NCBI GenBank assembly: GCA_963786945.1 | Contig: CAWBAO010000001.1 | Coordinates: 65,976 to 129,975 of the forward strand | Length of the DNA: 64,000 nucleotides | Source: an uncultured delta proteobacterium | Lineage (GTDB): Bacteria; Myxococcota; Myxococcia; Myxococcales; Anaeromyxobacteraceae | Direction of reading: 5' to 3' | Shown: piece by piece, positions 14,888 through 42,849 of the stretch | How positions within the stretch are numbered: position 1 is the stretch's first letter | Layout: the number at the start of each line of letters is the position of its first letter | Translations under genes and position numbers: made by a program | The notes under the pieces: model-generated | Database searches by the model: none | What the model was told of the DNA's origin: nothing | The model's input: the letters and a program-made list of their open reading frames with translations, nothing else

Positions 14888-14940
14888 CAGCCTACCGCAG
14901 AGCGCCCGCCCGGGGTTGCGCCGGGGCCGTTGGCCCGGTA

Positions 14941-15981
14941 GTGCTTGGCCCCATGCTCGGCATCCTGCTCGTCAACCTCGGCACGCCCGACGACCCCTCC
15001 CCGCCCGCGGTGCGCCGCTACCTCCGCGAGTTCCTCTCCGATCCGCGGGTCGTCGACATCAACCCGGTGGCCCGCAAGCTCCTGCTGGAGCTGGTGATCC
15101 TGCCCCGGCGGCCCCGGGTCAGCGCCGCCGCCTACGCCAAGATCTGGAGCCGCGAGGGGTCGCCGCTGCTGGCCTTCTCGCGGGCCCTGGAGGCCAGGGT
15201 GCGCGAGGCGCTCGGGCCCGGGCACCTCGTCGAGCTGGCGATGCGCTACGGCCGCCCCTCCATCCCCGACGCGCTGGAGCGGCTGCGGGCCGGTGGCGCC
15301 GGCCGGCTGGTGGTGGCGCCGCTCTACCCGCAGTACGCCTCGTCGTCGACCGGCTCCTCGCTCGAGGCGGTCTTCGCGGCGCTGGCCCGCCAGCCGGTGG
15401 TGCCGGCGGTGTCGGTGCTGCCCCCCTTCTACGACGACCCGGGGTTCATCGCCGCCTTCGCCGCGGTGGGCGCGCCGGTGGTGGCGCGCGAGCAGCCCGA
15501 CCACGTCCTCTTCAGCTTCCACGGCCTTCCCGAGCGCCACGTGCAGGCGTCCGACCACTCCGGCCGCCACTGCCTCCAGTCGGCCGGGTGCTGCGACGTG
15601 ATGGGCGTGGCCAACCGCGACTGCTACCGGGCCCAGTGCTTCGCCACGGCGCGGGCGCTGTCGGCCCGGCTCGGGCTGCAGCCCGGGACCTGGAGCGTCA
15701 GCTTCCAGTCGCGCCTGGGCCGGACCCCCTGGATCAAGCCCTACACCGACCTGCGGCTCGAGGAGCTGGCGCGGGAGGGGAAGCGGCGGCTCTGCGTCTT
15801 CTCCCCGGCCTTCGTGGCCGACTGCCTGGAGACGCTGGAGGAGATCGGGATGCGCGCCGAGGAGCAGTTCAAGGCGGCCGGCGGCGAGCGGCTCGCCCTG
15901 GTCCCCTCGCTCAACGCCAGCGACGCCTGGGTCGAGGCCCTGGTCGCGATGCTGCGCCGCACCGCCGGGGCGCCGGCGTAG
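14941..15981 (+). CDS. hemH: ferrochelatase
   Basis: It has ILLVNLGTPD, YLREFLSDPRVV, PLYPQY and SFHGLPE motifs. The start is either GTG 14941 or ATG 14953. Confidence 0.95.
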   Translation: MLGPMLGILLVNLGTPDDPSPPAVRRYLREFLSDPRVVDINPVARKLLLELVILPRRPRVSAAAYAKIWSREGSPLLAFSRALEARVREALGPGHLVELAMRYGRPSIPDALERLRAGGAGRLVVAPLYPQYASSSTGSSLEAVFAALARQPVVPAVSVLPPFYDDPGFIAAFAAVGAPVVAREQPDHVLFSFHGLPERHVQASDHSGRHCLQSAGCCDVMGVANRDCYRAQCFATARALSARLGLQPGTWSVSFQSRLGRTPWIKPYTDLRLEELAREGKRRLCVFSPAFVADCLETLEEIGMRAEEQFKAAGGERLALVPSLNASDAWVEALVAMLRRTAGAPA

Positions 15982-16035
15982 GAGGCCGTCGAGAGCGCCG
16001 GTCCGAAGCACCGTCAGGTGACGGCTCGTGGCGAG

Positions 16036-18464
16036 TTACTGGATCGTCCCCGTCGAGGCCGCGAGCTTGTCGATGAGCGGCTGCATGACCGACGCCGGGA
16101 CGCCGGACCTGTTCATCGAGGACCCGACGAAGGTGGTCATGGCGGCGGCGAGGCCGGTCGTCCCCGCCGTCGACTGCATCATGGTCCCGCCGCCCATCAT
16201 CCCGCCGCCCATGCCGCCCATGGCGATGGAGGTGGAGCCCATCATCCCGTTCATGAGGCCATCCGAGGCGTCCTTCATCATCGCGGTCACCACCCCCGAG
16301 GAGGAGACGCTCATCCCGATGCTCTTGGCGTACTGCGACATGGCGGCGATGGACATCCCGTAGTCCGTCTGGTCCTGGGTCGCGCCCGAGCCAGAGCCGG
16401 CCATCGCCGGGTCCATCGGCGACGTCATGAGGATGTCGCCGGCCATGAAGTAGTTGCCCACCGCCGTGTTGGCCGCCCCCGCGTTCGCCGCGGTCATCCC
16501 GCCGGACATGTTCTGCGCCATGGCCTGGGCCATCGACGTGAGCGGCGTCACCTGGACGCCGGTCGTCGTCGAGCCGGCGGAGACCGACGGAACGCAGCTC
16601 GTCAGCACGTCGCCGGACTGCATGATCATGTTGGTCCCGGTGGCCGGGTCCATGAAGGTCCCGCCGGTCATCTGCAACATCACCGTCCCTGCGTAGGCGC
16701 CGAGCGGGACGCTGAAGTTGCCCGTGGCGTCGACGGGGCTCGAGCCAATCATCGGCCCCATCGTGCCGTTGGTCACGGCGTAGGCCGTCACGGTCCCCGA
16801 GGACGTCCCGCCCATGAAGGCGGTGCCGGTCATGGTCCCGTGGGGGCTGACCGTCGCCACCGGCGCCGGGGAGCTGCCCGTTCGACCCCGCGAGCTGGGT
16901 CATGAGCGCCTGCATGTCCGCTGCCGTCACGCCGGACTTGTTCATCGCGGAGCCGACGAAGGTGCCCATCGCCGTGGAGAGGCCGGAGGTGCCGGCCGTG
17001 GACGACATCATCCCGCCCATCATTCCGCCCATGCCCGCCATCGAGATGGCGGTCCCGCCCATCATCCCGTCCATGACGCCGTCCGAGGCGTCGTTCGTCA
17101 TGGCGGTGACCATCCCGGAGGACGACGTGTTCATCCCGATGGTCTTCGCGTACTGGGACATCGCCGCGATGGACATGCCGTAGTTCTTCTGGTTCTGGGT
17201 GGCGGAGGTGCCGGAGCCCACGACCATCGGGTTCATGGGCACGGTGTGCAGGATGTCGGTCACCGAGAAGTAGGTCCCGACCGCGGTGTGCGTGGTGGCG
17301 ATGTTGGCGTCGGTCATGCCGCCGGTCATGGCCTTCGCCCTGGCGCACGCCATGCTGGTCAGCGGCGTCATCTGGATGCCGGTCGTCGTCGAGCCGGCGG
17401 CGACGGCCGGGACGCACGCCACCATCACGTCGCCGGGGAGCATGGACATCGCCGTGCTCGTCGCCTCGTCGGTGTACGTCCCCCCCGTCATCTGGAGCAT
17501 CACGGAGCCCGCGTAGGTTCCGAGCGGCACGCTGAAGTGGCCCATGCCATCGGTGGTCGCGCTGCCGAGCTGGGCCCCCATCATGCCGTTCGCGATGGCG
17601 TAGGCGGTCACGGTGGCGCCGCCGACCGGCCCCTTCATCGCGGTGCCGGACATCATCCCGGTCGTGGTCCCCCCGCTGCCGATCTGGCCGCCCGAGCCGT
17701 TGAGCTTGTTCACCAGCGGCCTGCATGTCCGTCATGGTCACGCCGGACTTGTTCATCGCCGAGTTGACGAACGCGGACATCGCCGTCGCCAGCCCCGTCG
17801 TCCCGGCGGTGGCCTGCATCATCGTGCCGCCCATCATCCCGCCACCCATGGTGAGGGAGGACGTGCCCATCTTGCCGTCCATGACGCCATCCGAGGCGTC
17901 GTCCATCATGGCGGTGACCACGCCCGAGGAGGAGGGCATCCCGATGGTCTTCGCGTACTGGGACATGGCCGCATTGGCCATGCCGTAGTTCTTCTGGTCC
18001 TGCGTCGCGCCGGTCCCCGAGCCGGCCACCATGGGGTTCATCGGCACGGTGTGGAGGATGTCGCTCACCGAGAAGTAGGCGCCCATGTCGGCGTTCGCGG
18101 CGACCATGTTGGCGTCGGTGATGCCCCCGCTCATGTGGTGCACGCGGGCGTGGGCCATCGAGGTGACCGGGGTGACCTGGATGCCTGAGGTCGACCCGCC
18201 CACGGCGGCCGAGGGAATGGCGCAGGCCATCACGTCCCCGGGCTGCATGGTCATCGTCGTCCCCGTGGCCTCGTCCGTGTAGGTGCCACCGGTCGCCTGG
18301 AGCATCATCGGGCCCGAGTAGGTGCCGACGGAGACCGAGAAGTTCCCCGTCGAGTCGGTGGTGCCCCCGCCGATCTGCGCGCCCATGGTGCCGTTGGTGA
18401 CGGCGTAGGCGGTGACGGTGGCGCCGCTCACGGGGCCTTTCACGACGGTGCCGCTCACGGTGTA
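16036..18464 (-). repeat. three tandem, diverged Met-rich modules of about 285 aa (about 860 nt each)
   Basis: Each module has GATVTAYA..NG.MG...TD..G.FSV..G.Y.G...LQ.TGG.Y.DEATG, then ILHTVPMNPMV.GSG..ATQ.Q.NYGM..AAMSQYAK.IGM, then a MGGMGG/MMGG tract and AMNKSGV...MQ. The copies are clearly diverged at the amino-acid level. Confidence 0.85.
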
Positions 18465-23497: not shown

Positions 23498-24952
23498 TCA
23501 GCCGAGCGCCACGGGGACGAAGATCCGCACCTCGCCGCGCTGGACCAGGATGGCCACCTGCTTGCCCGCCTTGGCCACCAGCGAGCGGAGCTGCTCGACC
23601 CCGGTGACCGGCGTCCCGCTCACCGAGAGCACCACGTCACCGGGCTGGATGCCGGCCCGCGCCGCGGGTCCGCTCACGCCCTCGACCACCACGCCGCCCT
23701 TGATGTCGGCCTGGCGCTCCTCCTCGGGCGTGATGGGCCGGACCGTGACCCCCAGCCGGCCGTGCTGCGCCGGGCCGTCGGCGCTCGCCACCTGGGCGTC
23801 CTTCGACTCGCCGACCACCACGGCGATCTCCTGGTGGTGACCCTTGCGCCACACGTCCAGGTCGGCGCGGGCACCGGGCTTGATGTCGGCGACCCGCTGC
23901 GGCAGGTCGGACGAGGTGGTGATCGCCTGGCCGTCCAGCGAGAGGATCACGTCACCCGGCTGCAGGCCCGCCCTGGCCGCCGGGCTGCCGTCCTCCACCG
24001 AGCTCACCAGCGCGCCCGATGGCCCGGGCAGGCCGAAGGACTGGGCCAGGGCCTGGTTCACGTCCTGGATGGTCACGCCCATCCTCCCCCGGGTCACCTT
24101 GCCGTGGGCCAGCAGCTGCCCCTCCACCTTCATGGCCACGTCGATGGGGATGGCGAAGGAGAGCCCCATGTACCCACCGGACTGGGAGTAGATCTGCGAG
24201 TTGATGCCGATGACCTCCCCCGCCAGGTTGAAGAGCGGGCCGCCGGAGTTGCCGGGGTTGACGGCCACGTCGGTCTGCAGGAAGGGCACGTACCCCTCGT
24301 TGGGCAGCGAGCGCGCCCGGGCCGAGACGATCCCGGCGGTGGCGGTGTTCTCGAAGCCGAAGGGGGCGCCGATGGCCAGCACCCACTCGCCGACCTTGGT
24401 GCGGGCCGGGTCTCCCAGCTTCACGGTGGGGAGCCCCTTGGCGTCGATGCGCAGCACCGCCACGTCGGTGGCCTTGTCGAGGCCGACCACCCTGGCCGGG
24501 AACTCCCGCCAATCGGTGAGCTTGACCGTGATCTCGGTGGCGTCGGCCACCACGTGGGCGTTGGTGAGGATGACGCCGTCGGCGCCGACGATGAAGCCCG
24601 AGCCGAGCCCGCGCATGGGGACGCTCCCCTGCGGATGCGGGCCGCCGAAGTGCTGGAAGAACTTCCAGAAGGGGTCGTCGGGGTCGGCCTGGCCGAACGA
24701 CGGGCCCTGGAACTCCGCCTTCTTCATGCCCGACGTGCTGACGTTGACCACGGCGGGGCCGTACTGCTTGACGATGGCGCTGAAGTCCGGAAGCGACATG
24801 GTGGCGGCCACGGCGGGCGTGGCGGCGGCGGGCGCCGTGGGCTCGGCGGCCTGGGCGCGCCAGGCGATGGGGCGGCCGGCGACGGCGACTCCGGCCACCA
24901 CCATCACCAGGGTGGCCACGACGACTGCTGCGAGCCGGGTGTACTTGGACAT
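23498..24952 (-). CDS. DegP/DegQ (HtrA)-family periplasmic serine protease with two PDZ domains
   Basis: It has TNAHVV, D.AVL and GNSGGPL catalytic-triad motifs plus two PDZ-like segments. Confidence 0.95.
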   Translation of the reverse strand: MSKYTRLAAVVVATLVMVVAGVAVAGRPIAWRAQAAEPTAPAAATPAVAATMSLPDFSAIVKQYGPAVVNVSTSGMKKAEFQGPSFGQADPDDPFWKFFQHFGGPHPQGSVPMRGLGSGFIVGADGVILTNAHVVADATEITVKLTDWREFPARVVGLDKATDVAVLRIDAKGLPTVKLGDPARTKVGEWVLAIGAPFGFENTATAGIVSARARSLPNEGYVPFLQTDVAVNPGNSGGPLFNLAGEVIGINSQIYSQSGGYMGLSFAIPIDVAMKVEGQLLAHGKVTRGRMGVTIQDVNQALAQSFGLPGPSGALVSSVEDGSPAARAGLQPGDVILSLDGQAITTSSDLPQRVADIKPGARADLDVWRKGHHQEIAVVVGESKDAQVASADGPAQHGRLGVTVRPITPEEERQADIKGGVVVEGVSGPAARAGIQPGDVVLSVSGTPVTGVEQLRSLVAKAGKQVAILVQRGEVRIFVPVALG

Positions 24953-25032
24953 GTTGGGCTCCTTGCGGTTCCGGGCTGGGCTCGATGCCCACCCCTCGCA
25001 CTGAGCCCTACGCGCGGCGCCTTAAGGGAGTC

Positions 25033-31414: not shown

Positions 31415-32542
31415 TCAGAAGGAGAAGGAGAGGCCGGCGGAGAGCCGGGTGGCCGTGGTGTCGGCCGGGGGATCCGAGGGGGGCTGGGGCCGCCAGTCCT
31501 CCAGGTCGGCGCCCAGCCAGGCGCGGGCGTGGTGGCCCAGCGGGAGGGAGGCCTGGAGCCGCACCGCCCACCGGAGCTCGTCGGGGACGTCGTAGAGCAC
31601 CCGCGCCTCGAGGTCGGCCGGCCGGAGCTGCGGGCCGTACTCGCCCGAGAGCGCGAGGCTCCACGGGCCGCGCCACTCGACGCCGGCCAGCGCGGCCGTG
31701 GTGGTGGCGCCATCGGCCAGCTGGGTGCGGACCCCGGCGCGGAGCGCCAGGTGCTCGCCGAGCGGCAGCGCCGCCGTCCCCTCCAGCTGGTAGACCGTCA
31801 GGTCCTCGTACCAGCTGGTCGCCGCCACGGCCCGCCATTCCAGCCCGTACCGGACCATGGCCGAGAGGCCGGCGACGACGCCTCCGTAGCCGGAGATCTG
31901 CTCGACGCCCGCCGTGGTGGTCGCCGCCCGGGAGATGGCCGCGCCCCGCAGCGCCACCTGCCAGCCCGGCGAGGCCAGGCCGAGCGAGAGGTGGAGCTCG
32001 TGCTGGAGCGTCGCCCCGGCGGTGGTGCCGCCGCCCTGCATGCGCCCGCGCCCTCCGCCGCTGGTGAGGCTGGAGGGCGTGCCGAGCATCCGGTACAGCC
32101 CGCCCACGGTCCAGCGATCGGCGAGCTGGGCATCGACGGTGAGCACGCCGGCGTAGAGATCGCTCCCGGCCGACGGGCCGGAGTAGCTGGTGCCGGCGCC
32201 GTAGATCCCGATCCAGACCTGGTCGGGCGCGCCCCGGCCCAGCTGCGCGTCCTCGAGGCCACGCCGCGCCTCGTCCGAGCCGGGCTCGAGATCCAGGACA
32301 CGGCGGTACTGGGCCTCGGCCGCGGCGTACTCGCCGGCGCGGAGCAGGTAGTAGGCCCGGGCCAGCTGCAGCGGGAGGTCCTGCGGCCAGGTGGCGGCCG
32401 GCCCCTCCAGCGACCTCGCCGCCTCCAGGTAATGGCCGCCGGCGGCCTGCTGGCGGGCGCCCGCGAGGGCGTCCTCGTAGGCGTCGGCCCGGACCGCGGC
32501 CGGGGCGAGGAGCAGCAGCAGCAGCGCCACGGCCCTACCCAT
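31415..32542 (-). CDS. outer-membrane protein: N-terminal TPR region plus C-terminal beta-barrel-like domain
   Basis: It has a signal peptide (MGRAVALLLLLLAPAAVRA) followed by TPR-like helices. After that come alternating amphipathic strands ending in LSFSF, the terminal-Phe OMP signature. The ATG at 32542 follows GAGGAGG and overlaps the upstream gene by 8 nt. Confidence 0.7.
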   Translation of the reverse strand: MGRAVALLLLLLAPAAVRADAYEDALAGARQQAAGGHYLEAARSLEGPAATWPQDLPLQLARAYYLLRAGEYAAAEAQYRRVLDLEPGSDEARRGLEDAQLGRGAPDQVWIGIYGAGTSYSGPSAGSDLYAGVLTVDAQLADRWTVGGLYRMLGTPSSLTSGGGRGRMQGGGTTAGATLQHELHLSLGLASPGWQVALRGAAISRAATTTAGVEQISGYGGVVAGLSAMVRYGLEWRAVAATSWYEDLTVYQLEGTAALPLGEHLALRAGVRTQLADGATTTAALAGVEWRGPWSLALSGEYGPQLRPADLEARVLYDVPDELRWAVRLQASLPLGHHARAWLGADLEDWRPQPPSDPPADTTATRLSAGLSFSF

Positions 32543-34646
32543 CGGCCGCCTCCTCGACCCGCTCGGCCCGGTGGACCCGGGCGCCGAGGCGGACCTCCAG
32601 CGTCCGCGGGCCACCGGCGTCGAGGACCGCCAGCGTCTCGATGGGCTGGCGCCCGGCCCGGCCGCGACCGCGGACCTCGAGCAGCGCGCCGCGGCGCACC
32701 GCCTCGAGCGCCAGCGGGATGCCGCCCTCCGGGAGGAACGGCTCGGCCAGATCGGTCAGCCAGCGCACCCAGGCCGGCCGCAGGCGGCGGCGCGGCAGGA
32801 CGTCGTCCCAGGCCAGGCCGGGGGTCACCTCGTAGGGGACGCGCGGGGCGGCCGCGGCCAGCAGGTGGAGCACGCTCTCCCGCCGGCCGGTGTGGTCGAA
32901 GACCACGAACTGCCGCCCCTGGTTCTCGTACCAGAGCACCGCCCCCAGCGACGGCGACTCCAGCGTCAGCTCGCCCATCAGGCCGATGTGCGAGCCCACC
33001 GTCTCGCGGTGGACCCGGCCCGAGGGGCTGCGCACCTCGAAGGTGAGCTCCTGCCCGAGCGGGAAGGCGAAGGGGGCGGCGGCCTCGTCGCGGCGCTCCA
33101 GCGCCCGCACCGCCTGGCCCTCCCCCGGCACCAGCCAGCGGTGGAGCACCTGGCCCTCCTCGTCGCCGGTCACCACGTCGGAGAGCGTCAGCTCCAGGGT
33201 GGGGGCGCCGATGCGGGCGGTGGCCTGCAGCTGGAAGTGGAGGTGCGGCACGAAGGACCGGCCGCTGTTCCCGCAGCGGGCCAGCCGGGCCCCCTGCCGC
33301 ACCAGCTGCCCCTCGCGCACCTCGACCGAGCCGGGGGCCAGGTGGGCCACCAGCGAGAAGAGCCCCGGGCCGTGCTGCAGCAGGACCAGGTTGCCGTAGG
33401 GCTCGCGCGCGTTGCGCTCGCCGACCGCGTTGTCGGGGACGTCGGCCACCACCTTCACCACCGTGCCGTCGGCGGCGGCCAGCACCGGGAGGCGGTAGCA
33501 GCGGTAGTCGCGGACCTCCGCGCCGGCGCCGGTGTGGGTGCTGCCCCCGGCGCCGGCCACCTCGAAGTCGAGGGCGTAGCGCCAGGGGCCCTGGTGGGTG
33601 TGCTTCCCGTCCACGCCCTGCGTCACCGTCCAGCGCCCGGCGAAGGGCGGCGCGAAGCGCACCCCGAAGCCGGGGCCGAAGCGGGCCAGGCGGGTCCGGT
33701 AGTAGGCCAGGTTGGCCTCCGGGGTGCCGGCCACGAAGTCCACGGCCTTGGGGGCGCCGTCGCGGGTCCGCTGGCGCATGGCGGCCAGGGCCACCAGCAT
33801 GGTCACGTTGAAGGGGAGGATCAGGACCGGCAGGCCCAGCGGCCGGAGCAGCGCCAGGGCCCCGGCGGTGCCGAGCGAGGTGAGGAGCGCCGCCGCGCCG
33901 GCCAGCAGGAAGGCGGCCCGCTGCGGCACGAACCAGACCCCCCCGAGGGCCAGCGCCGCCAGCATGGCGTTGGCGTTCAGCACCAGCAGCGCCGGGTCGC
34001 TGGCGAAGGTGAAGACCCAGGTCGAGAGGGCGTGCGCCACGGCGAAGCCGAGCGCGGTGAGGAGGGTGGCGATGCGGCTGTGCAGGACCAGCGCCGCCAG
34101 CACCACGGCGCCGGCCAGGACGGTGGGCGAGAAGAAGATCACCCCCAGGCTGCGCAGGAAGAGGTCGGCGACCTCGGGCAGCCAGGCCGGGCCGTGGGCG
34201 GGGATGAGCTCGGGCGCGGCCCGGGCCACGATGCCCACGTAGGGGGCGGCCGCCAGCGAGAGCCAGGTGACCAGCACGAACGGGAGGGAGAGGAGCGGCA
34301 GGTAGAAGACCGCCCCCAGGGCCGACTCCAGCGCCGCCTCCAGGAACACCACCGCCACCACCGAGAGCAGCAGCAGGGCGGCGGTCCCCGGCCCGGGCTC
34401 GAAGAAGGTCCCCACCGCCAGGCCGACCAGCAGCGGGTTGTAGCCGTAGCGGCCGTGCGACGCGGCCGTCTCGGAGAAGCGGAGCAGCCGCACCAGCCCG
34501 TGGCCGGCCAGCACCGCCACCAGCCCGTGCAGGCCGGCGCGTGGCGACAGCGCCGAGGCGAGGAGCAGCAGCGCCCCCACGCCGCGGTGATCGGCGAAGA
34601 GGACCTGCGCGTAGGCGGAGAGGGTCGCGGAGGTCAGCCCAGCCAC
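32535..34646 (-). CDS. urea-transporter-family (UT) membrane domain fused to an M23 (LytM) peptidase domain plus a ~230-aa uncharacterised C-terminal domain
   Basis: This is the tail of ORF 32535..35987. The first ~300 aa are polytopic and UT-like (SAYAQVLF...GYNPLLVGLA). The M23 core follows (GNLVLLQHG...S..AHL...G..V..G..L..CGNSGRS..PHLHFQL). The GTG at 34646 follows GAGGAGG and overlaps the decarboxylase gene by 13 nt. Confidence 0.85.
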   Translation of the reverse strand: MAGLTSATLSAYAQVLFADHRGVGALLLLASALSPRAGLHGLVAVLAGHGLVRLLRFSETAASHGRYGYNPLLVGLAVGTFFEPGPGTAALLLLSVVAVVFLEAALESALGAVFYLPLLSLPFVLVTWLSLAAAPYVGIVARAAPELIPAHGPAWLPEVADLFLRSLGVIFFSPTVLAGAVVLAALVLHSRIATLLTALGFAVAHALSTWVFTFASDPALLVLNANAMLAALALGGVWFVPQRAAFLLAGAAALLTSLGTAGALALLRPLGLPVLILPFNVTMLVALAAMRQRTRDGAPKAVDFVAGTPEANLAYYRTRLARFGPGFGVRFAPPFAGRWTVTQGVDGKHTHQGPWRYALDFEVAGAGGSTHTGAGAEVRDYRCYRLPVLAAADGTVVKVVADVPDNAVGERNAREPYGNLVLLQHGPGLFSLVAHLAPGSVEVREGQLVRQGARLARCGNSGRSFVPHLHFQLQATARIGAPTLELTLSDVVTGDEEGQVLHRWLVPGEGQAVRALERRDEAAAPFAFPLGQELTFEVRSPSGRVHRETVGSHIGLMGELTLESPSLGAVLWYENQGRQFVVFDHTGRRESVLHLLAAAAPRVPYEVTPGLAWDDVLPRRRLRPAWVRWLTDLAEPFLPEGGIPLALEAVRRGALLEVRGRGRAGRQPIETLAVLDAGGPRTLEVRLGARVHRAERVEEAADG

Positions 34647-35980
34647 CCCGGCACCTCCTCCTGCGCCAGCAGCGTCTCCACCGACTCGCGCCGGCGGATC
34701 AGCCCGGGCTCGCCGCGCCGCGAGATCATCACCACGGCCGGGCGCTCGGTGATGAACTGCATCCACTGGGTCACGTTGTAGGCCCCGACGTTGCGGACCA
34801 CGATGCGGTCCCCGGGCGTGAGCGGCGGGAAGAGCAGCTGGTCGCGCACCACGTCGATGGCCATGCAGAGCGGCCCGTAGAGCACGGTCGGCTCCGGCGT
34901 CCCGGCGAACTCCTGCGCCGGCACCACGTCGTGCCGGTACCAGAAGGCCGTGAACAGGGAGTTGACCCCGGCGTCGAGGACCACCGCCCGGCGGCCATCC
35001 GCCAGCCGCTTGTTGGCGTGGACCGTGGTGATCAGGGAGCCGGCCTCGTCCACCAGGGCGCGCCCGGTCTCCAGGAAGATGACCGGCTCCTTCCCGCCGG
35101 GGAGCGCCAGCGCCGCCAGCCCCTCGGCGATGGCCTCGGCGTACTGGGCGAAGGAGGGCGTCACCTCCTCGCCGGGCAGGTACTGCGCGTGCAGCGTGTT
35201 GCGGGAGGCGAAGCCGCCGCCCAGGTCGATCCACTCGACCAGCACCCCGTGGTCCCGGGCCAGCCCGTTGGCCAGCTCGGCCAGCTTGCGCGCCTCCTGG
35301 CGGTAGGCGTCCACGTCCTGCACGAAGGTGCCGATGTGGGCGTGCAGGCCGGCCAGCTGGAGCACGCCGCCGGCCAGGATCCGGCGGACGGCGTCGAGCG
35401 CCTGCCCCGACTCGAGGTTGAAGCCGAAGCGCGACCAGGGCGGCGTGCCGGGGAGGGCCATGTTGACCCGGATGGCCACCTTGGGCCGGAGCTCCAGCCG
35501 GCGGGCCACGACCTCGGCGCGGGCCAGCTCGTCGAAGTGGTCGAGGTGGACCCGGGCGCCGGCGCGGAAGGCCTTCTCCAGGGCCGCCTCCGGCTTGTAG
35601 GGCCCGTTGAAGATGACCTCGGTGCCCGGCACGTGGCGCAGCGCCTTGTCGAGCTCCATCTCGCTCACCACCTCGGCCAGCGAGCCCTCGCGGTGCATCA
35701 CCTTGCAGATGGCGTCGAGGTAGTTGGTCTTGTAGGACCACGCCAGCCTGGCGGTCGGCAGCCGCGCCACCAGGGCCTCGCGCAGCTCGCGGTGGCGGGA
35801 CACCAGCGTCTTCTCGCTGAAGACGAAGAGCGGGGAGCCGTACCGCTCCACCAGGGCGGCCACCGGGACCCCGTCGATCTCGGTGAGGGGGCGCATGCTG
35901 GTGGCCCGGGAGAGCTTGTTCATCAGCCCGGGCTGGTGGCGCACCAGGGTGGGGCGGTCGTAGGCGGGCCTGGCGGTCAT
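34634..35980 (-). CDS. PLP-dependent decarboxylase, Orn/DAP/Arg decarboxylase (group IV) family
   Basis: It has a SYKTN PLP-lysine region, HIGT, a GGGF glycine loop, and a C-terminal beta-barrel with a GPLC motif. The ATG at 35980 overlaps the ATP-grasp stop (ATGA). Confidence 0.9.
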   Translation of the reverse strand: MTARPAYDRPTLVRHQPGLMNKLSRATSMRPLTEIDGVPVAALVERYGSPLFVFSEKTLVSRHRELREALVARLPTARLAWSYKTNYLDAICKVMHREGSLAEVVSEMELDKALRHVPGTEVIFNGPYKPEAALEKAFRAGARVHLDHFDELARAEVVARRLELRPKVAIRVNMALPGTPPWSRFGFNLESGQALDAVRRILAGGVLQLAGLHAHIGTFVQDVDAYRQEARKLAELANGLARDHGVLVEWIDLGGGFASRNTLHAQYLPGEEVTPSFAQYAEAIAEGLAALALPGGKEPVIFLETGRALVDEAGSLITTVHANKRLADGRRAVVLDAGVNSLFTAFWYRHDVVPAQEFAGTPEPTVLYGPLCMAIDVVRDQLLFPPLTPGDRIVVRNVGAYNVTQWMQFITERPAVVMISRRGEPGLIRRRESVETLLAQEEVPGWLG

Positions 35981-37053
35981 GTGTCACCTCGGGTGCGGGC
36001 CAGCTCGCCCTCGGTGCTGAGCGCCTGGAAGTCGTCCATGGAGGCGATCAGGTCGAGCGAGATGCGGACGAAGAGGGTGCCGGCGCGGAACTCGGTCATG
36101 GGGTCGACCGGCTCGCCGAGCGCCAGCCGGGCCACCGCCCAGGGGAGGTTCTGCCCGGCGCCCGAGGCCAGGTGGCACCAGGCCGGGAAGCGCGGGTTGA
36201 CCTCGATGAGCAGGTAGCGGTCCTCGGGGGTCTTCAGGATCTCCAGCTCGCAGGGGCCGCGCCACGAGGTGGCCGCGAAGAAGCGGCGGGCGGCCTCGAG
36301 GAGGTGGGGGTCATTGACCGCCACGCCGGCCCAGCCCTTCCCCTTGTCGGAGAGCAGCAGCTTCCTCATGGGGACCGCGCCGATCATGCCGCCGCGGCCG
36401 TCGCCGACCGCCACCACGTCGTACTCCTGGCCGGCGTGGAAGCGCTGCACGATGACCGGGAGTCCCCACCTCGCCACCACGGCGTGGAAGGCGGCGGCCG
36501 CCTCGTCCGGGCCATGGACCACGGTGGCGCCGTAGAAGACCCCCTTCACCACCAGCGGGTACGGCAGGTCGGAGGGCAGGCGATAGACCTCGGCCACGTC
36601 GGAGAGGACCTGCTGGACCGGCACGTCGAGGCCGGCCTTCCGCCCCAGCTCGGCGAGCCGCACCTTGGAGCGCAGGTCGTACTGCTCCCGCGTCGGGAGG
36701 AACATCCTGATCCCCAGCTCCCGGAGCTCGGGCTCGAGCGCGATGAACGCCGGCAGCTCGGAGTCGAGCGTCGGGATGATCACGTCGATGTGGCGGCGCT
36801 GGTGGATCTCCCGGAGGCGCGCACCGAGGGCCTCCACGCCCTGGCTCGGGTAGGGGATGAGCAGCCCGGCGTCGAGCCCGATCTCGGTCGAGTAGAGCCC
36901 GGAGTCGAGCGCGTCGTAGGCCAGCCCCAGCACCTTCCCCAGGAAGCCCGGCGCGGCGCGCAGCGATCGGATGACCGCGACGCCGGGGGCCGGGTTGTCC
37001 GTGGCGTTGAGCCCGGTGACCGCCACCGTGAACGACCGGAGCGGATCGCTCAC
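35977..37053 (-). CDS. ATP-grasp domain ligase (carboxylate-amine/peptide ligase type)
   Basis: This is the tail of ORF 35977..37401. It has a pre-ATP-grasp domain (AVTGLNATDNPAPGV), a P-loop-like VVKG region, EYDVV, and LIEVNPRFP Mg/ATP-site motifs. The GTG at 37053 overlaps the PqqD-like stop (GTGA). Confidence 0.85.
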   Translation of the reverse strand: MSDPLRSFTVAVTGLNATDNPAPGVAVIRSLRAAPGFLGKVLGLAYDALDSGLYSTEIGLDAGLLIPYPSQGVEALGARLREIHQRRHIDVIIPTLDSELPAFIALEPELRELGIRMFLPTREQYDLRSKVRLAELGRKAGLDVPVQQVLSDVAEVYRLPSDLPYPLVVKGVFYGATVVHGPDEAAAAFHAVVARWGLPVIVQRFHAGQEYDVVAVGDGRGGMIGAVPMRKLLLSDKGKGWAGVAVNDPHLLEAARRFFAATSWRGPCELEILKTPEDRYLLIEVNPRFPAWCHLASGAGQNLPWAVARLALGEPVDPMTEFRAGTLFVRISLDLIASMDDFQALSTEGELARTRGDT

Positions 37054-37316
37054 GGCTCGGTCCCGGCCGGCAGCCAGCCCTGCTCCCGCATCTGCAGGAG
37101 GTACTCGCGCACGTCGCGGGCCACGTCGGTGCCCGGCTCCACCTCGAAGGCCGCTCGCAGGGCGGCCTCGACGGCCTCGGGGGAGTCGCCGCGCCGCAGC
37201 GCCTCGAGGATGAACCGGCCGGTCTCGTTCAGGCTGTAGGTCTGTCCGCCGTACGGGTCGAAGACGAAGCCGCTCTCGCTCACGGCCAGGTCCCGAAGTC
37301 TGTGCCTCGCGTCCAT
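37050..37316 (-). CDS. PqqD-family protein (RiPP-recognition-element-like peptide chaperone)
   Basis: It is 88 aa. The pattern GFVFDPYGGQTYSLNETGRFILEALRRGDSPEAV...DVREYLLQMREQG matches the PqqD winged-helix profile as I remember it. The ATG follows GAGGGAG. Confidence 0.75.
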   Translation of the reverse strand: MDARHRLRDLAVSESGFVFDPYGGQTYSLNETGRFILEALRRGDSPEAVEAALRAAFEVEPGTDVARDVREYLLQMREQGWLPAGTEP

Positions 37317-37486
37317 GGTGGACTCCCTCGCAGATCATCTGAACCCGCCGGAGCCCACATGGTTCCACAGCGCGCCTGCGGCATCGGGTCGCACGGCGCA
37401 AGCCGCCAGGGAGCGCGGACGCTGGTGCAGCGCGCGATCGAGGACGAGGCGGGCGATCCCGGCGCGAGCGCGCCGAGGAGCACCGG

Positions 37487-37963
37487 TCAGATGGTCACGG
37501 TCTGCGCCGGCGGGAACAGCGGCAGCGGCGGCGGCGCCCCGAGCGGCGGATGGCCGGGCGGCAGGCGCGGCAACGCGCGGACTGGCGGGTGGCCCGGGGG
37601 AAGGCGCAGCGCGGCCCCGACGGGCGGGTGGCCCGGCGGGAGGTCCGGCTCGATCGCGATGGGCGGGTGGCCGGGCGGGAGGCCTGGAACGGCCGCGACG
37701 GGCGGGTGGCCGGGCGGGAGCCCCCTCATGGCCCCGATGGGCGGGTGGCCGGGCGGGAGGCACCCGGCGCCGTCGAGGGTCGGGGCGGCGTCGGAGCTCG
37801 CCGCGACTCCCATTCCGGCCAGGCAGGCGGCGACGATCAAGGCCCGAGCGCCGGCGCGCCGGTTCAGCCACGGCCGCCGTTCCGTGAGGCCACCGCCCGG
37901 TCCTGCTGCCGTCGCCAGCGCCAGACCGTCCACCCGCCCTCGACCACTCGCCGTCGTCGCCAT
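37487..37963 (-). CDS. exported His/Pro repeat protein (6 x LPPGHPP), candidate substrate/precursor of the downstream operon
   Basis: The ATG at 37963 lies 6 nt after GAGGAGG. It has a Tat-like TERRPWLN motif, then the hydrophobic ALIVAACLAGMGVAA and SSDA-A. Six exact LPPGHPP heptads follow. All nucleotide differences between the heptads are at third positions of this frame. Confidence 0.7.
   Translation of the reverse strand: MATTASGRGRVDGLALATAAGPGGGLTERRPWLNRRAGARALIVAACLAGMGVAASSDAAPTLDGAGCLPPGHPPIGAMRGLPPGHPPVAAVPGLPPGHPPIAIEPDLPPGHPPVGAALRLPPGHPPVRALPRLPPGHPPLGAPPPLPLFPPAQTVTI
37544..37759 (-). repeat. six-unit 39-nt (13-aa) tandem coding repeat, invariant LPPGHPP plus variable hexapeptide
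   Basis: The plus strand shows GGGCGGGTGGCCGGGCGGGAG-type 21-mers every 39 nt. The variable spacers are IGAMRG, VAAVPG, IAIEPD, VGAALR, VRALPR and LGAPPP. Confidence 0.95.
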
Positions 37964-38109
37964 GGCTCGCCTCCTCGGGACTGCGCCTGCACCCGCCCAC
38001 CAGCCGAGACCGGATCGCGTCAGTCCGCGCCTCCGCTCTCATGCCGTCGGACGGGCGCCGCCACCACCTGATCGGCGTGGCCGGCCCACGTCCCTGAAGG
38101 GGGTAGGGG

Positions 38110-39678
38110 TCAGGGCGCCGTGGTGAACGGCCAGCCGTCGCTCTGGGCGATCCGGTAGGCCGGCGCCGTCGCGTAGAACCCCCCCGGACCGGCGGCCTCC
38201 TCCACCGTCGAGAAGGCGGAGCTGCCGCGAATCCGCCAGGTGAAGAGGGTGCTCGGGGGGAGCGGGAAGGCCGCCGGGATGGTCAGCGACTGGGCCGCGG
38301 TGAGGACGTCATAGCCCGGCGTCCCGACCGGCCCACGGAACGAGGCCACGTAGACGGACGGATCGGGCATCGAGTGCCACCTGAACGTCGTCCCGGGCGC
38401 GACCCCCGTCGCCCCGGCGGCCGGCTGGTCCTGGGTGGGGAGGCCCCCGAAGACGATCGCCACCCCCGCCGCGTCGGGGGCGAGGCCGTGCCGGTGCACC
38501 TCCTGGTAGGCCATCCCCGCGTAGTCCTGCCGGGCCACGAGGTCGATGGTGCTGCCGAGGACGGCGGGCGTGGGGATGCTGAACGGCGAGGTGAAGCCGT
38601 TGGAGGGGAAGGAGGACGGATCGCCCGGCGGCGGGAGGACCCGGATCCGCGCGCCGTCCTGGAAGACGGCGAACACGCTGATCCCCACCGTGTTGTAGGG
38701 CGGGTTCACGATGGTCCCACCGATCGACTTGGCGGCGACCACGCCGAGCGCGAGGTCCTGCCCGGAGAGCGCCGCGCCGTCCACCAGCGTCACGCCGGCG
38801 CGGAAGCCGTAGCCGTCGTAGCCCACCGGCCGCTTGCCGGCGTCGACCGTCCACTGGAGCGCGTGGAGCTGGCCCGCCACCGACGAGGGGCCGGCCCACC
38901 GGGTCCCGAGCAGGAAGGTGGAGGCGCCGGCCTGGACCGGGCAGGTTCCGGTCGCCTCGGCGGACTTGAAGGTGACGCCCGCCTCGCGCCCGGCGGGCTG
39001 GGGGAAGCCGGCGCCGCCGGAGAGCGCGCCGGTCACGTCGACGCTGCGCGGGTAGCCCGGATCGGCGTCCAGGAAGAGGACCAGCGTCGGGTCCATCCTC
39101 CGCAGGCCCGGGTAGGCGCTGGTGAGCAGCCCGTCGGGCGCGGTGGCGGTGATGTCATAGGGCACCGTCACGCCGGGGAGCGAGAAGGCCCCCTGGGCGT
39201 CGGTGGTGGCACTGGCGGATCCCACCCGCACCGAGGCTCCCGCGACCGGGGCGCCGCCCGGGGCGATCACCTTCCCGGCCAGGACCTGGACGGCCGGATC
39301 GATGGTGATGGTCGCCGAGGCCGTCAGGCCTCCCACCGTGGCGGTCAGGGTCGCCGTGGTCATCGTGGCGACGGTGGCCGGCGGCGTGTAGAGCACCGGG
39401 ACGCCCTGGGTCCGGTCGAGGCTGCCCGGGCCGACGAGGGTCCAGTTCACCATCTCCGTGCAGTTGCTCGCGCCACCGCCGAAGCTGATGGCCGCCCCGC
39501 CCGCCGTCACCCGCGCCGACGACGGGTAGATGCCGGCCACGGAACCGGCAGGGCACCCTCCCCCGCCGTCGTCGCTGCCGCCTGCCGAGCAGCCCGCCAG
39601 GCATGCGACCAGCAGCAGGGCTCCCTTCGACGCGATCCGGGTCATGGCCGCCACCTTTCGTGCGCGGATCGCCTTCAT
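38110..39678 (-). CDS. lipoprotein of unknown function with carboxypeptidase-regulatory-like beta-sandwich segment
   Basis: It has a lipobox (LLLVACLAGC) and a segment GKVIAPGGAPVAGASVRVGSASATTDAQGAFSL. The start is ATG 39678 or ATG 39645. Confidence 0.7.
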   Translation of the reverse strand: MKAIRARKVAAMTRIASKGALLLVACLAGCSAGGSDDGGGGCPAGSVAGIYPSSARVTAGGAAISFGGGASNCTEMVNWTLVGPGSLDRTQGVPVLYTPPATVATMTTATLTATVGGLTASATITIDPAVQVLAGKVIAPGGAPVAGASVRVGSASATTDAQGAFSLPGVTVPYDITATAPDGLLTSAYPGLRRMDPTLVLFLDADPGYPRSVDVTGALSGGAGFPQPAGREAGVTFKSAEATGTCPVQAGASTFLLGTRWAGPSSVAGQLHALQWTVDAGKRPVGYDGYGFRAGVTLVDGAALSGQDLALGVVAAKSIGGTIVNPPYNTVGISVFAVFQDGARIRVLPPPGDPSSFPSNGFTSPFSIPTPAVLGSTIDLVARQDYAGMAYQEVHRHGLAPDAAGVAIVFGGLPTQDQPAAGATGVAPGTTFRWHSMPDPSVYVASFRGPVGTPGYDVLTAAQSLTIPAAFPLPPSTLFTWRIRGSSAFSTVEEAAGPGGFYATAPAYRIAQSDGWPFTTAP

Positions 39679-39926: not shown

Positions 39927-40925
39927 ATGGACAGGGCTCCGCGGACCGACCTGCGACCCCTCGATCCGCGGCCGTCGCGGCTCCTCGGCGACACCTTCCT
40001 CGCCGACGTCCAGGCCGGGCTGGCCCGCCGGCCGCGCGCGCTCCCGTCGAAGTACTTCTACGACGACAGGGGAAGCCGCCTCTTCCAGTGGATCAGCAGG
40101 CTGCCCGACTACTACCTGACGCGGGTCGAGCGGGAGATCCTCGACCGCCACGGAGGGGCCATCGTCGCGCCGCTGTGCGGACGGCCCTGCACCGTCGTCG
40201 ACCTCGGCGCCGGGGACGGGCACAAGACCCTGCGGCTGCTCCGGCGGCTGGCACGGGCCGGGACCGGCGTGGCCTATGCCCCGGTCGACCTCTCCCCGGC
40301 GGCGCTCGAGGAGGCGGCCGGCCGGGTGCGTGCCCGGCTGCCCGGCTTGCCGGTGCGGCCGGTTCGAGCCACCTACGCGAGCGCGCTGCGGCAGCTCGCC
40401 GGCCTGCCGCAGGCCGATCCGAGGCTGGTCCTCTTCCTCGGCTCCAGCATCGGCAACCTCGAGCATGCCGCCGCGCGCTCCACGCTGCTCGAGCTTCGCC
40501 GCGCGCTCCGCCCCGGCGACCACCTGCTGGTCGGCTTCGATCTCGTCAAGCCCTGGTCGCTGCTCCACCGCGCCTACGACGACCCGCCCGGCGTGACGCG
40601 CGCCTTCAACCTCAACCTGCTGGCGCGCATCAACCGGGAGCTCGGCGCCGACTTCGACCTCTCGGCGTTCCGGCACGTCGCCACCTGGGATCCGGTGCGG
40701 CCGGCCATGGAGAGCTGGCTCGAGTCCACCCGGTCCCAGGTCGTCCGGCTCGCCGGCCGCCCCTACCGGTTCGCGCCGGGCGAGCGGATCCACACCGAGA
40801 TCTCCTGCAAGTACTCCGACGCGCAGGTCACGGCGTTCGGCGCCGACGCGGGCTTCACCGAGGCGGGCCGCTTCTCCGACCCGGACCGGTGGTTCGTCGA
40901 CGCGCTCTGGAGGGTCGACCCGTGA
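39927..40925 (+). CDS. egtD: L-histidine N-alpha-methyltransferase (ergothioneine biosynthesis)
   Basis: It has LPSKYFYDDRGS.LF..I..LP.YYLTR.E..IL, DLGAGDG and GSSIGN motifs typical of EgtD. Confidence 0.92.
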   Translation: MDRAPRTDLRPLDPRPSRLLGDTFLADVQAGLARRPRALPSKYFYDDRGSRLFQWISRLPDYYLTRVEREILDRHGGAIVAPLCGRPCTVVDLGAGDGHKTLRLLRRLARAGTGVAYAPVDLSPAALEEAAGRVRARLPGLPVRPVRATYASALRQLAGLPQADPRLVLFLGSSIGNLEHAAARSTLLELRRALRPGDHLLVGFDLVKPWSLLHRAYDDPPGVTRAFNLNLLARINRELGADFDLSAFRHVATWDPVRPAMESWLESTRSQVVRLAGRPYRFAPGERIHTEISCKYSDAQVTAFGADAGFTEAGRFSDPDRWFVDALWRVDP

Positions 40926-41477: not shown

Positions 41478-42735
41478 ATGGCTGAGCCGGCGCGGGGCCG
41501 GCCCCTGGACGGGCCAGGCGCGCTGGCCGAGCGGCTGGCCCGGGTGCGGGCCCAGACCTCGCGGCTGTGCGCCCCCCTGGCCGTCGAGGACTACGTGGTC
41601 CAGTCGATGCCGGACGCCAGCCCGGCCAAGTGGCACCTGGCCCACACCTCCTGGTTCTTCGAGACCTTCGTGCTCGGGCCGCACCTGCCCGGGTTCCAGC
41701 CGTGGCGGGCCACCTGGGCGCCGCTCTTCAACTCCTACTACGTGGCCGCCGGTCCCCGGCATCCGCGCGCCGAGCGCGGGCTGCTGACGCGCCCCACCGT
41801 CGCCGAGGTGCAGGCCTACCGGGCCTGGGTGGACGAGCGGATGCAGGCGTTCCTGGCATCGCCCGCGGCCGATCGGCCCGAGGTGGCCGCGCTGGTGGAG
41901 CTGGGGCTGCACCACGAGCAGCAGCACCAGGAGCTGCTGCTCACCGACCTCCTGCACGCGTTCTCGATGAACCCGCTCAAGCCGGCCTACCTGGAGGCGA
42001 CGCCGCCGCCCTCGACCGCCGCGCCGCTCCGCTGGCTGGAGCGGCCGGGCGGCCTGGTGCGGATCGGCCGGGAGCAGGCGGGATTCGCCTTCGACAACGA
42101 GCGCCCGGCGCCACCTGGTGCACCTCGAGCCCTTCCGGCTCGCCTCGCGGCCGGTCAGCGCCGGCGAGTTCGCGGAGTTCATCGCCGACGGGGGCTACCG
42201 GCGGCCCGGGCTGTGGCTGTCCGACGGCTTCGCCGCCGCGCAGGCGGGCGGCTGGCAGGCCCCGCTCTACTGGGAGCGCCGCGACGGTGCGTGGCGCCGC
42301 TTCACGCTCCACGGCGACGTCGCGGTCGACCCGGCCGCACCGGTCACGCAGGTGAGCTACTACGAGGCCGATGCCTTCGCCCGCTGGGCCGGGGCGCGCC
42401 TGCCGACCGAGGCCGAGTGGGAGAGCGTGGCCGGGGAGCAGCCGGTGGCCGGCCAGTTCGTGGAGGACGGCGTCCTGGTGGCGGTCGCGGCGGGCGGTGC
42501 GGCCCCCCTCTTCGGCGGCGCCTGGACCTGGACGGGGAGCCCGTACGTCGCCTACCCCGGCTTCACCCCCGCGCCCGGGGCCGTGGGCGAGTACAACGGC
42601 AAGTTCATGGTGAACCAGCTGGTCCTGCGCGGCGGCTCGTGCCTCTCGCCTCGCGACCACCTGCGCGCCACCTACCGCAACTTCTTCCCGCCACACGCCC
42701 GCTGGCAGCTCGCGGGCATCCGGCTGGCCCGCTGA
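41478..42735 (+). pseudogene. egtB: ergothioneine biosynthesis sulfoxide synthase EgtB, interrupted by a single-base frame break near 42108
   Basis: The N-terminal half (frame of 41478) has the DinB-like KWHLAHTSWFFETFVL and runs to ...FAFDNERP. The C-terminal half (frame of 42118) continues RHLVHLEPFRLASRPVS...YNGKFMVNQLVLRGGS...TYRNFF (FGE-sulfatase domain). Skipping one G at ~42108 joins them. Confidence 0.85.
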
Positions 42736-42849
42736 GGCGCACGGTGGGGACGACCCCGCGGGCGAGCCTGCGGCGAGGGTGCTGCACGGACTGACCGTCG
42801 CTGCTGGGCGCTGGACACCCGGCCCCCGCTCGGACAGACTCCGGCTGCC

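Follow-up and report, generated by a model that had tools for sequence, protein, structure and literature searches.

An unannotated family of LPPGHPP-repeat proteins, mainly from Anaeromyxobacteraceae, with a possible role in periplasmic haem binding

The System I cytochrome c maturation protein CcmI consists of a tetratricopeptide repeat (TPR) region, a disordered linker and a C-terminal domain; it is a chaperone of apocytochrome c and also contacts apoCcmE (PMC3884852). Haem can also be bound by short exposed motifs in which a Cys, His or Tyr is accompanied by Leu, Val, Phe or Tyr; a Pro after the ligand makes the backbone rigid and directs it away from the porphyrin, and net negative charge is reported to disfavour binding (PMC6356037). 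In histidine-rich glycoprotein (HRG), tandem GHHPH repeats (GHPPH/GPPPH in rabbit) bind haem as well as Cu/Zn/Ni at ~10 sites, and the prolines were proposed to project the His residues outward (PMC5372734). Here we describe a small LPPGHPP-repeat protein encoded in a stretch of 64,000 nucleotides (the window) from an uncultured delta proteobacterium of the Anaeromyxobacteraceae (contig CAWBAO010000001.1). Its motif recurs in proteins of haem trafficking, and the repeat protein may itself bind haem in the periplasm. The gene has the following features.

37487..37963, minus strand: whole open reading frame (ORF) of the LPPGHPP-repeat protein, 158 codons plus stop (ATG at 37963-37961, stop codon at 37489-37487)
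37970..37974, minus strand: Shine-Dalgarno sequence GGAGG, 6 nt before the ATG, by direct sequence reading
37862..37963, minus strand: residues 1-34, an Arg-rich, fast-evolving N-terminal region, presumably cytoplasmic (substitution rates, alignment, positive-inside rule)
37790..37861, minus strand: residues 35-58, a predicted hydrophobic helix (..ARALIVAACLAGMGVAASSD..), putative signal-peptide core or signal anchor (structure prediction, family comparison)
37760..37762, minus strand: Cys68, the lone conserved Cys, directly N-terminal of the first heptad (C-LPPGH; family comparison)
37544..37759, minus strand: heptad array, residues 69-140, six LPPGHPP (translation and Tandem Repeats Finder)
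37739-37759, 37700-37720, 37661-37681, 37622-37642, 37583-37603 and 37544-37564, minus strand: the six heptads (translation)
37490..37543, minus strand: conserved C-terminal tail, residues 141-158, LGAPPPLPLFPPAQTVTI, whose last residues are T-x-T-I at the free C-terminus (family comparison)

The translation agreed exactly with the original prediction of six identical heptads, which start at residues 69, 82, 95, 108, 121 and 134 and thus have a period of exactly 13 residues. Tandem Repeats Finder reported a 39-nt unit in 6.2 copies with 74% matches (37519-37761), while the heptads were 100% identical as protein, confirming the earlier claim that the peptide motif rather than the DNA is conserved. 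When the heptad codons were compared with their commonest string (CTC CCG CCC GGC CAC CCG CCC), eight differences were found across the six copies, and all eight were synonymous third-position changes, as had been predicted. Because only ~6.3 of the 21 sites in a heptad are synonymous, such a pattern is unlikely under neutrality, and we estimate its chance at roughly 1e-4.

The GC contents at codon positions 1/2/3 of the ORF were 0.83/0.69/0.89 in a window of 74% GC. Compared with the orthologue at locus L004 (88.65% DNA identity), the ratio of nonsynonymous to synonymous substitution rates (dN/dS) of the repeat-plus-tail region was 0.285 in the sense frame and ~1.3 in four other frames, which upholds the minus-strand frame as the selected one; for residues 1-67 the ratio was ~1.2. 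The antisense GGWPGG frame, which the original prediction had named as the alternative, gave a dN/dS of 0.65 across the whole ORF and contains a stop codon in L004. We rejected it as a real gene because of this stop and because the conservation within the family lies in the sense frame. The sense frame is settled by hundreds of homologues that have a common start, hydrophobic segment and C-terminal end, and the repeat ORF is a genuine, selected gene.

Pfam and NCBIfam scans of the repeat ORF gave no domain match, a PDB sequence search with the protein gave a chance match only (E 0.43), Rfam gave no match on 36800-38300, and scans for sigma-70 promoters and intrinsic terminators at the repeat gene found none. 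An identical protein is already on record in sequence databases, without a name. PPG and HPP each occur six times in the array. Since few motifs stall ribosomes as strongly as Pro-Pro-Gly, synthesis of the repeat protein should depend strongly on elongation factor P.

The repeat protein belongs to an unannotated family, with 195 homologues in a word-indexed search and 442 cluster representatives at E<=1e-3 (96 at E<=1e-10) in an exhaustive profile search. The members are mostly from Anaeromyxobacteraceae and, where named, are called 'hypothetical protein'. Neither the searchable literature nor Pfam/NCBIfam describes the motif or the family; His/Cys-Pro haem/metal motifs, short and exposed, and tandem repeats of His-Pro are already known as a general kind. 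The small members (~90-190 aa) have a variable Arg-rich N-terminus, a hydrophobic segment of usually ~14-20 residues, a Cys, an array of 3-7 motifs and a tail. Past the hydrophobic segment, 95/114 and, in a second count, 147/183 small members have exactly one Cys. This lone Cys always lies 1-4 residues before a motif, and a CP dipeptide is formed in 60/147 (41%).

The family motif is L(98%)-P-[P79/A10]-G-H-P-P(94%)-[V55/I34/L9]. Outside the motif, His accounts for 0.8% and Lys for 0.2% of the residues of small members, and the spacers are D/E-rich in many subfamilies. The rigid period that had been predicted holds for the window gene and its closest relatives but not across the family, where the spacing ranges from 9 to 29 (mostly 11-16, with modes at 13 and 12). 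Likewise, the spacers are only in part as free as had been supposed: 98% of motifs are followed by V, I or L as the first spacer residue, and conservation extends to the positions that precede the last repeat (..PR-LP[AP]GHPP). The tail has the consensus P-[LVI]-F-P-Q-x-G-T-S-T-[ILT] and ends at the free C-terminus.

A link between the motif and cytochrome c maturation was found in a group of proteins, here called class X, that consist of a signal peptide, 1-5 LPxGHPx motifs, a beta-rich domain and a C-terminal transmembrane (TM) segment, with ~300 residues after the array. In contig L092, the class X gene encoding P0221 has overlapping stop and start codons with ccmA, which is followed by ccmB and ccmC. 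A locus search used only the globular part of class X as the query. Together with L092 it made up the loci L092-L103, and ccmA was directly downstream of class X in 11 of these 12; the twelfth contig ends there. Wherever the contig continues, ccmB and ccmC follow ccmA. ccmF (PF16327, PF01578) lies upstream of class X, and hemA lies downstream in L100. Two examples are given here.

L094 3181-4473: class X gene between ccmF and ccmA-ccmB-ccmC
L100 199-1497: class X gene between ccmF and ccmA-ccmB-ccmC

No ccmE was seen in the class X operon stretches read, so class X might be a lineage-specific Ccm component. AlphaFold2 (AF2) predicted a confident all-beta globular part of ~260 residues and a disordered motif tail. 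Foldseek with this model returned only generic beta-sandwich matches (OST48/Wbp1, M1 aminopeptidase N-domains and pilins; TM score ~0.25). In L100 and L102, two contigs without differences in the stretch compared, three copies of ECPV(S/T)HTKA stand where the array would be, and several class X tails begin with a CC(P) motif. ECPV(S/T)HTKA is a Cys-Pro-Val..His motif of the CP type, and Cys-Pro with a hydrophobic residue after it is characteristic of haem-regulatory motifs. Because two chemically different motifs, LPxGHP and ECPV(S/T)HTKA, interchange in class X, a common small ligand, namely haem, is a simpler explanation than a shared protein partner.

The motif was also found in proteins related to CcmI. 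P0181 has a lipobox, six MPAGHPPMGG units and an Ig_CycH domain (PF23892, 1.9e-11), and its gene begins 18 bp after a ccmH gene. At least one motif was present between the lipobox and the domain in 118/118 P0181 homologues retrieved and examined (exactly one in 50), although this figure was inflated by the word-based search and counts for less in favour of a haem function than it appears to. Full-length CcmI-like proteins (TM, coiled coil, TM, TPR, Ig_CycH) have one (L/M)PAGHPP(I/V)D within the segment that links the TPR part to Ig_CycH. The statement in the original prediction that single LP(P/E)GHPP motifs occur in deltaproteobacterial TPR proteins was therefore correct, and the same string has a second, unrelated source in TPR proteins, the KLC-type TPR_10/12 consensus ..ALPPGHPDIA... 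When the query was the Ig_CycH domain only, which is free of the motif, a motif was found ~20-25 residues before the domain in 6/12 hits with >=30 upstream residues; it was present in nearly all close relatives from this search and missing in more distant ones. The linker motif is not mentioned in the published account of CcmI (PMC3884852). In addition, P0140 has five motifs fused to a ChaN haem-binding domain (PF04187, 8.4e-48). The motif is enriched in haem trafficking, as represented by class X, the Ig_CycH lipoproteins, the CcmI linkers and the ChaN fusion.

These proteins were not the only long ones with the motif. The exhaustive search gave further exported bacterial proteins in which [LM]-P-x-G-H-P-x-[VIM] arrays stand beside unrelated globular domains. 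The array forms a free tail at the N-terminus, a tail at the C-terminus, the tether of a lipoprotein or the linker between two domains. Because the invariant His and the fixed octapeptide are kept in all these positions, the motif appears to be more than a spacer, and its independence of position beside unrelated domains argues for an intrinsic function. Other partners of the array were TPRs (P0192), DUF2155, a LolA-like domain (array C-terminal) and two OB-like domains (array between them), and in P0173 and P0209 the arrays form free terminal tails. NCBIfam returned no names for the fusion partner domains. In fusion variants, Met frequently occupies the two hydrophobic positions (MPAGHPPM). 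In lipoproteins, LPxGHPP arrays are followed by a recurrent unannotated domain of ~140 aa that lies in the periplasm (W..P.GW ... GG...N[VI]NRWR.Q.G ... FFK..GP); P0235 and P0240 have one copy on each side of the array. Kinases and a LysM protein are encoded around one member (L105).

NxNRWRGQ-domain proteins: P0151, P0153, P0178, P0220, P0226, P0230, P0235, P0236, P0240, P0244

Two kinds of look-alikes were also encountered. In large NTPase-TPR proteins, helical KLC-type TPR_10/TPR_12 units read ..ALPPGHPDIA... The LP.GHP string also led to eukaryote-like membrane proteins with paired repeats (HP[SN][VI]D..I..G..LP.GHP..D..L...[ML]P..HPN.D), and these HPNVD/HPSID proteins probably carry a different, structured repeat.

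Eukaryote-like paired-repeat proteins: P0128, P0133, P0138, P0161, P0166, P0172, P0188, P0190, P0205, P0208

The N-terminal region of the repeat protein is variable in length and sequence among aligned relatives, with M-[AT]-T-T as the family-typical start, and a hydrophobic stretch was present in 114/121 family members. With a 70-sequence family alignment, AF2 predicted the helix at residues 35-58 as the sole secondary structure and none in the repeat region (mean pLDDT, the predicted local distance difference test, 65.7; ~80 over the last 30 residues). Because there is no secondary structure outside this helix, the prediction fits an extended, proline-stiffened chain. Judging from the Arg-rich N-terminus, the hydrophobic helix and the positive-inside rule, the N-terminus would stay inside and the repeats would be periplasmic. 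Cleavage by signal peptidase is plausible at a small-x-small site after the core, between the two Ala residues of S-D-A-A.

The claim that this is a small exported protein therefore gained support from the N-terminal export or anchor segment, while the suggested twin-arginine translocation (Tat) route did not fare well. RR occurs twice in the window protein (residues 29-30 and 35-36), and aligned relatives carry HR, RS, GR or RA at these positions; RR within 25 residues of the hydrophobic core was found in 34/114 family members only. A near-invariant S/T-R-R-x-F-L-K at the boundary of the n- and h-regions was absent, and the Pfam/NCBIfam Tat-signal models gave no match to the repeat ORF at E<=0.01. 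A requirement for Tat is also unlikely because the passenger is predicted by AF2 to be unstructured. We also rejected two other identities. The protein does not look like a bacterial lipoprotein, since Cys68 lies ~10 residues past the hydrophobic core and is preceded by D-G-A-G rather than an L-[AS]-[GA]-C lipobox. Nor is it a c-type cytochrome: the repeat ORF contains no CXXCH, and its lone Cys is 5 residues before a His (C-L-P-P-G-H).

We tentatively propose, from the motif and its contexts, that the repeat protein could bind haem (or metal) at multiple sites in the periplasm. The N-terminal hydrophobic segment would take the protein across the inner membrane or anchor it there, and an unstructured, proline-stiffened chain would then display six L-P-P-G-H-P-P-[V/I] units in the periplasm, with one Cys before and the conserved tail after them. 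Each unit may act as a short exposed ligand site, in which the invariant His would coordinate haem iron or else a transition-metal ion. The prolines on either side would keep the backbone extended and away from the ligand, and the L and V/I residues of the unit would contact the porphyrin. In this way the repeat protein might buffer haem or hand it off, by means of a motif that is also present in CcmI linkers and in the tail of the ccm-operon protein. We infer the His ligation of haem, the stoichiometry and the physiological role alike. An exposed His with hydrophobic neighbours and tandem Gly-His-Pro, which characterize His-based short haem motifs (PMC6356037, PMC5372734), are found in all six units, which have no predicted secondary structure. 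The Cys-Pro type of haem-regulatory motif (HRM) is absent from the window protein, in which Cys68 is followed by Leu-Pro. On the whole, the evidence found points towards haem more than towards metal. Anaeromyxobacteraceae are cytochrome-rich metal reducers.

A broader and more doubtful proposal is that [LM]-P-x-G-H-P-x-[VIM] could be a hitherto undescribed motif for handling haem in the bacterial periplasm, with His-Pro in the role that Cys-Pro has in the eukaryotic HRM. It would be used by System I of some lineages, in the CcmI linker and in the tail of the protein between ccmF and ccmABC, and in Anaeromyxobacteraceae it would form six-site arrays for haem buffering or hand-over.

Several observations weigh against a haem function. 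No ccm, haem or cytochrome genes were found beside small-family members at the examined loci or in the operon around the repeat ORF, no CXXCH was found in window ORFs of >=100 aa, and no ccm gene was found in the window. No haem context was seen for the NxNRWRGQ-domain lipoproteins, the OB-like proteins or the fusions with DUF2155 and LolA-like domains; the contexts of P0230 and P0197, which represent two array classes, showed no haem link. The linker motif is a clade-specific element of CcmI and not a universal one. The unit has one His per 13 residues and no second ligand within it. Because net negative charge is reported to disfavour haem, the acidic spacers of many subfamilies would suit metal cations better. 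Literature searches for motif strings (PGHPP, PPGHP, LPAGHP, MPAGHP and others) gave no bacterial paper that mentions the motif. Six of the eight motif positions are strongly conserved; a simple ligand site can usually do with less, and a docking motif would also fit. The haem reading does not account for the conserved C-terminal tail or for a hydrolase gene that is paired with the repeat gene in three subfamilies.

A rather unlikely alternative is that LPPGHPP[VI] would be a polyproline-II linear motif for a periplasmic partner such as a Ccm component, a chaperone or a PDZ, TPR or SH3-like domain. With six copies and a C-terminal beta-strand tail, the protein would be a multivalent docking scaffold that acts as an adaptor, decoy or regulator. 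The constrained positions (L98, P, G, H, P, P94 and V/I/L 98) would be natural in such a motif, and the free C-terminus is conserved (T-x-T-I/L) as in peptides that bind by strand addition. The single copy in the CcmI linker is also conserved, and CcmI contacts apocytochrome c and apoCcmE (PMC3884852). However, no partner was found among the conserved neighbours, and the motif occurs in many unrelated exported proteins of different phyla. The exchange of the array in class X for a Cys-Pro..His motif is also hard to square with one protein-binding groove.

A His-based metal-binding array, which the original prediction had suggested, is a rival to be taken seriously. Nevertheless, we consider it unlikely, and somewhat more so than docking, that the protein is a sponge or chaperone for divalent metals. 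In that case the six His, the acidic spacers and the Cys would form multi-His macrochelates for periplasmic Cu, Zn, Ni or Fe(II), in the manner of prion octarepeats and of the His-rich tails of metal chaperones. The His is invariant in the motif and nearly absent elsewhere (0.8%), which would suit a metal site as would the D/E-rich spacers, and the MPAGHPPM fusion variants provide the Met-His-Met set that periplasmic Cu(I) sites typically have. In HRG, too, the GHHPH/GHPPH repeats bind Cu/Zn/Ni at their haem sites (PMC5372734). However, in the window protein and most small members the flanks are L and V/I, which are unable to ligate metal, and His is sparse (1 in 13). Metal-homeostasis genes were not among the conserved neighbours at the family loci examined, and the recurring contexts were cytochrome c maturation and a haem-binding domain.

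It is improbable that the array is only a passive proline-rich spacer, a semi-rigid tether that would set the conserved tail, as the true functional element, at a fixed distance from the inner membrane. Lipoprotein linkers and the Pro-rich region of TonB are tethers of this sort. The layout, in which an anchor-like segment leads into an unstructured Pro-rich middle and then the conserved tail, would suit such a tether, and the lipoprotein fusions do place the array between a lipid anchor and a domain. Mere spacing, however, needs neither an invariant His nor a fixed octapeptide, and the copy number and spacing vary. Moreover, in class X, P0173 and P0209 the array is a free tail at the N- or C-terminus, and CcmI has a single conserved copy.

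The original prediction had also considered the heptads as six repeated core peptides. Downstream of the repeat gene on the same strand are genes for a PqqD-family protein (37050-37316; 8.1e-14), an ATP-grasp protein, a diaminopimelate-decarboxylase-like enzyme dependent on pyridoxal phosphate (PLP) and a fusion of a urea-transporter-like part to an M23 peptidase. Together they resemble a peptide-modification cassette.

32535-37316, minus strand: four-gene PqqD/ATP-grasp cassette (Pfam/NCBIfam scans)

The repeat gene is 170 bp upstream of the PqqD gene, and a 94% identical contig (L090) has the same arrangement, with an extra 82 bp (L090 1206-1287, at window 37433) between the two genes. In the 88.65% identical L004, similarity spans window 42582 down to 37483 and ends at the stop codon of the repeat gene; because it is gone from window 37483 onwards, the repeat gene sits at a synteny breakpoint. 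Five other family loci (L001, L003, L005, L007, L008) have different neighbours and no cassette. The cassette ATP-grasp protein has 296 relatives in Myxococcota, and the order of the four genes is kept in 72/80 fetched Myxococcota loci, where the upstream gene varies and often encodes a TPR protein. No conserved small precursor ORF was seen upstream of the cassette, and a PxGHP-repeat ORF was present at 0/80 of the fetched loci in any frame. The adjacency of the cassette and the repeat gene is accidental. Although the arrangement of a same-strand PqqD/ATP-grasp/PLP-decarboxylase/transporter-M23 cassette 170 bp away, kept in L090, could suggest a ribosomally synthesized and post-translationally modified peptide precursor, whose heptad cores would be recognized by the PqqD-family protein, modified by the ATP-grasp enzyme and decarboxylase and then exported, we regard this as very improbable, because co-location is not conserved, other upstream genes precede the cassette elsewhere, an export/anchor segment replaces the cytoplasmic leader, and the heptad lacks the Ser/Thr/Lys/Asp/Glu needed for ATP-grasp chemistry.

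The idea that the motif is a ligand for co-encoded TPR domains was likewise not supported. No TPR was found in 18 scanned window ORFs, namely ten codon-bias-supported ORFs outside the operon (13.0-31.7 and 42.7-44.7 kb) and eight around the repeat ORF (34.6-42.8 kb), and there were no conserved TPR neighbours.

Several other genes in the window and at the family loci may be recorded. A DegP/HtrA-type serine protease with two PDZ domains is encoded at window 23498-25021 on the minus strand, 12.5 kb from the repeat gene. PDZ domains bind free hydrophobic C-termini, and the C-terminus of the repeat family is a conserved T-x-T-I/L. Two ergothioneine biosynthesis genes lie on the plus strand, encoding EgtD, a histidine-specific methyltransferase (39927-40925; 2.4e-98), and an EgtB-like DinB_2 protein (41478-42794). 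A glyoxalase-family gene is situated between them on the opposite strand, and L004 and L005 have the same trio in the vicinity of the repeat gene. A ferrochelatase gene (14839-15981) is closely followed by three paralogous small ORFs on the plus strand (16022-16363, 16851-17183 and 17704-17988; coding-like GC of 0.93-0.98 at third codon positions). They are alike in ..CM..A.TPDLFI.EPTKV.. and in a C-terminal ..PM[VL][FL]AY[CW]D[MI]AA[ML][DA][IM]P, and Pfam gave no match for the two of them that were scanned. In three subfamilies, the gene directly 3' of the repeat gene on the same strand encodes a lipase-like alpha/beta hydrolase (GHSSGG) with weak PGAP1/DUF676 matches and no obvious signal peptide; it is not in the window.

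L001 8456-9580, same strand as the repeat gene: lipase-like hydrolase after the repeat gene
L003 8343-9464, same strand as the repeat gene: lipase-like hydrolase after the repeat gene
L008 8614-9468, same strand as the repeat gene: lipase-like hydrolase after the repeat gene

How haem is held and transferred in the periplasm between its export and covalent attachment is an unclear step of cytochrome c biogenesis, as is the role of the disordered linker of CcmI. If haem binding by the motif is true, a recurrent His-Pro motif in CcmI linkers, a ccm-operon protein, a ChaN lipoprotein and stand-alone arrays would provide a concrete, mutable handle on this haem step, and short linear motifs that bind haem or metals would gain a bacterial, periplasmic representative. 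Should metals or a protein partner be bound instead, the family would still be an unannotated, widely conserved periplasmic module worth naming. The analysis also reveals an uncharacterized protein, class X, embedded in ccm operons.

When the repeat protein is set beside known systems, the CcmI/CycH-like System I proteins (TPR plus PF23892) of Thermoanaerobaculia and Myxococcota-type lineages have the same octapeptide, (L/M)P(A/P)GHPP(I/V), in a periplasmic segment that is predicted to be disordered. In CcmI, however, there is one copy (1-6 in lipoprotein forms) between the TPR and Ig-like domains, beside ccm genes, whereas in the window protein six copies occur without a globular domain, and no ccm gene is adjacent. 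The repeat protein is thus not itself a CcmI/CycH: its ORF contains no Pfam/NCBIfam domain, the window contains no ccm gene, and only the linker motif is common. It resembles class X (L092-L103) in its disordered periplasmic tail, which has 1-5 LPxGHPx in class X, but class X adds an all-beta part of ~260 residues and a C-terminal TM anchor, and has ECPV(S/T)HTKA in L100 and L102.

With KLC-type TPR_10/TPR_12 (..ALPPGHPDIA.SLNNLA..) the repeat protein has the LPPGHP string in common, hence their appearance in motif searches. These are helical units of 42 residues, with HPD at the start of a helix, from large cytoplasmic NTPase-TPR proteins, and the likeness is a coincidence rather than homology. 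We rejected this identity because the repeat protein has no Pfam match, a period of 13 residues and no predicted helix in its repeat region. The order of an N-terminal membrane anchor and a Pro-rich extended segment is like that of TonB-type spacers, but TonB has (EP)n/(KP)n, no invariant His and a folded C-terminal domain, while the window protein ends in an 18-aa conserved tail.

The tandem Gly-His-Pro repeats are like those of HRG, a vertebrate plasma protein with no homology to the repeat protein; HRG has 5-residue units with 2-3 His each, in contrast to one His per 13 residues with hydrophobic flanks in the window protein. Classical HRMs are Cys-Pro motifs of mostly cytosolic or eukaryotic proteins, whereas the window protein has its His in G-H-P-P, repeated and, by prediction, periplasmic. 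As in haem-regulatory motifs, its units are short, exposed and unstructured, with a ligand residue followed by Pro and hydrophobic flanks, and its relatives often have CP beside the array.

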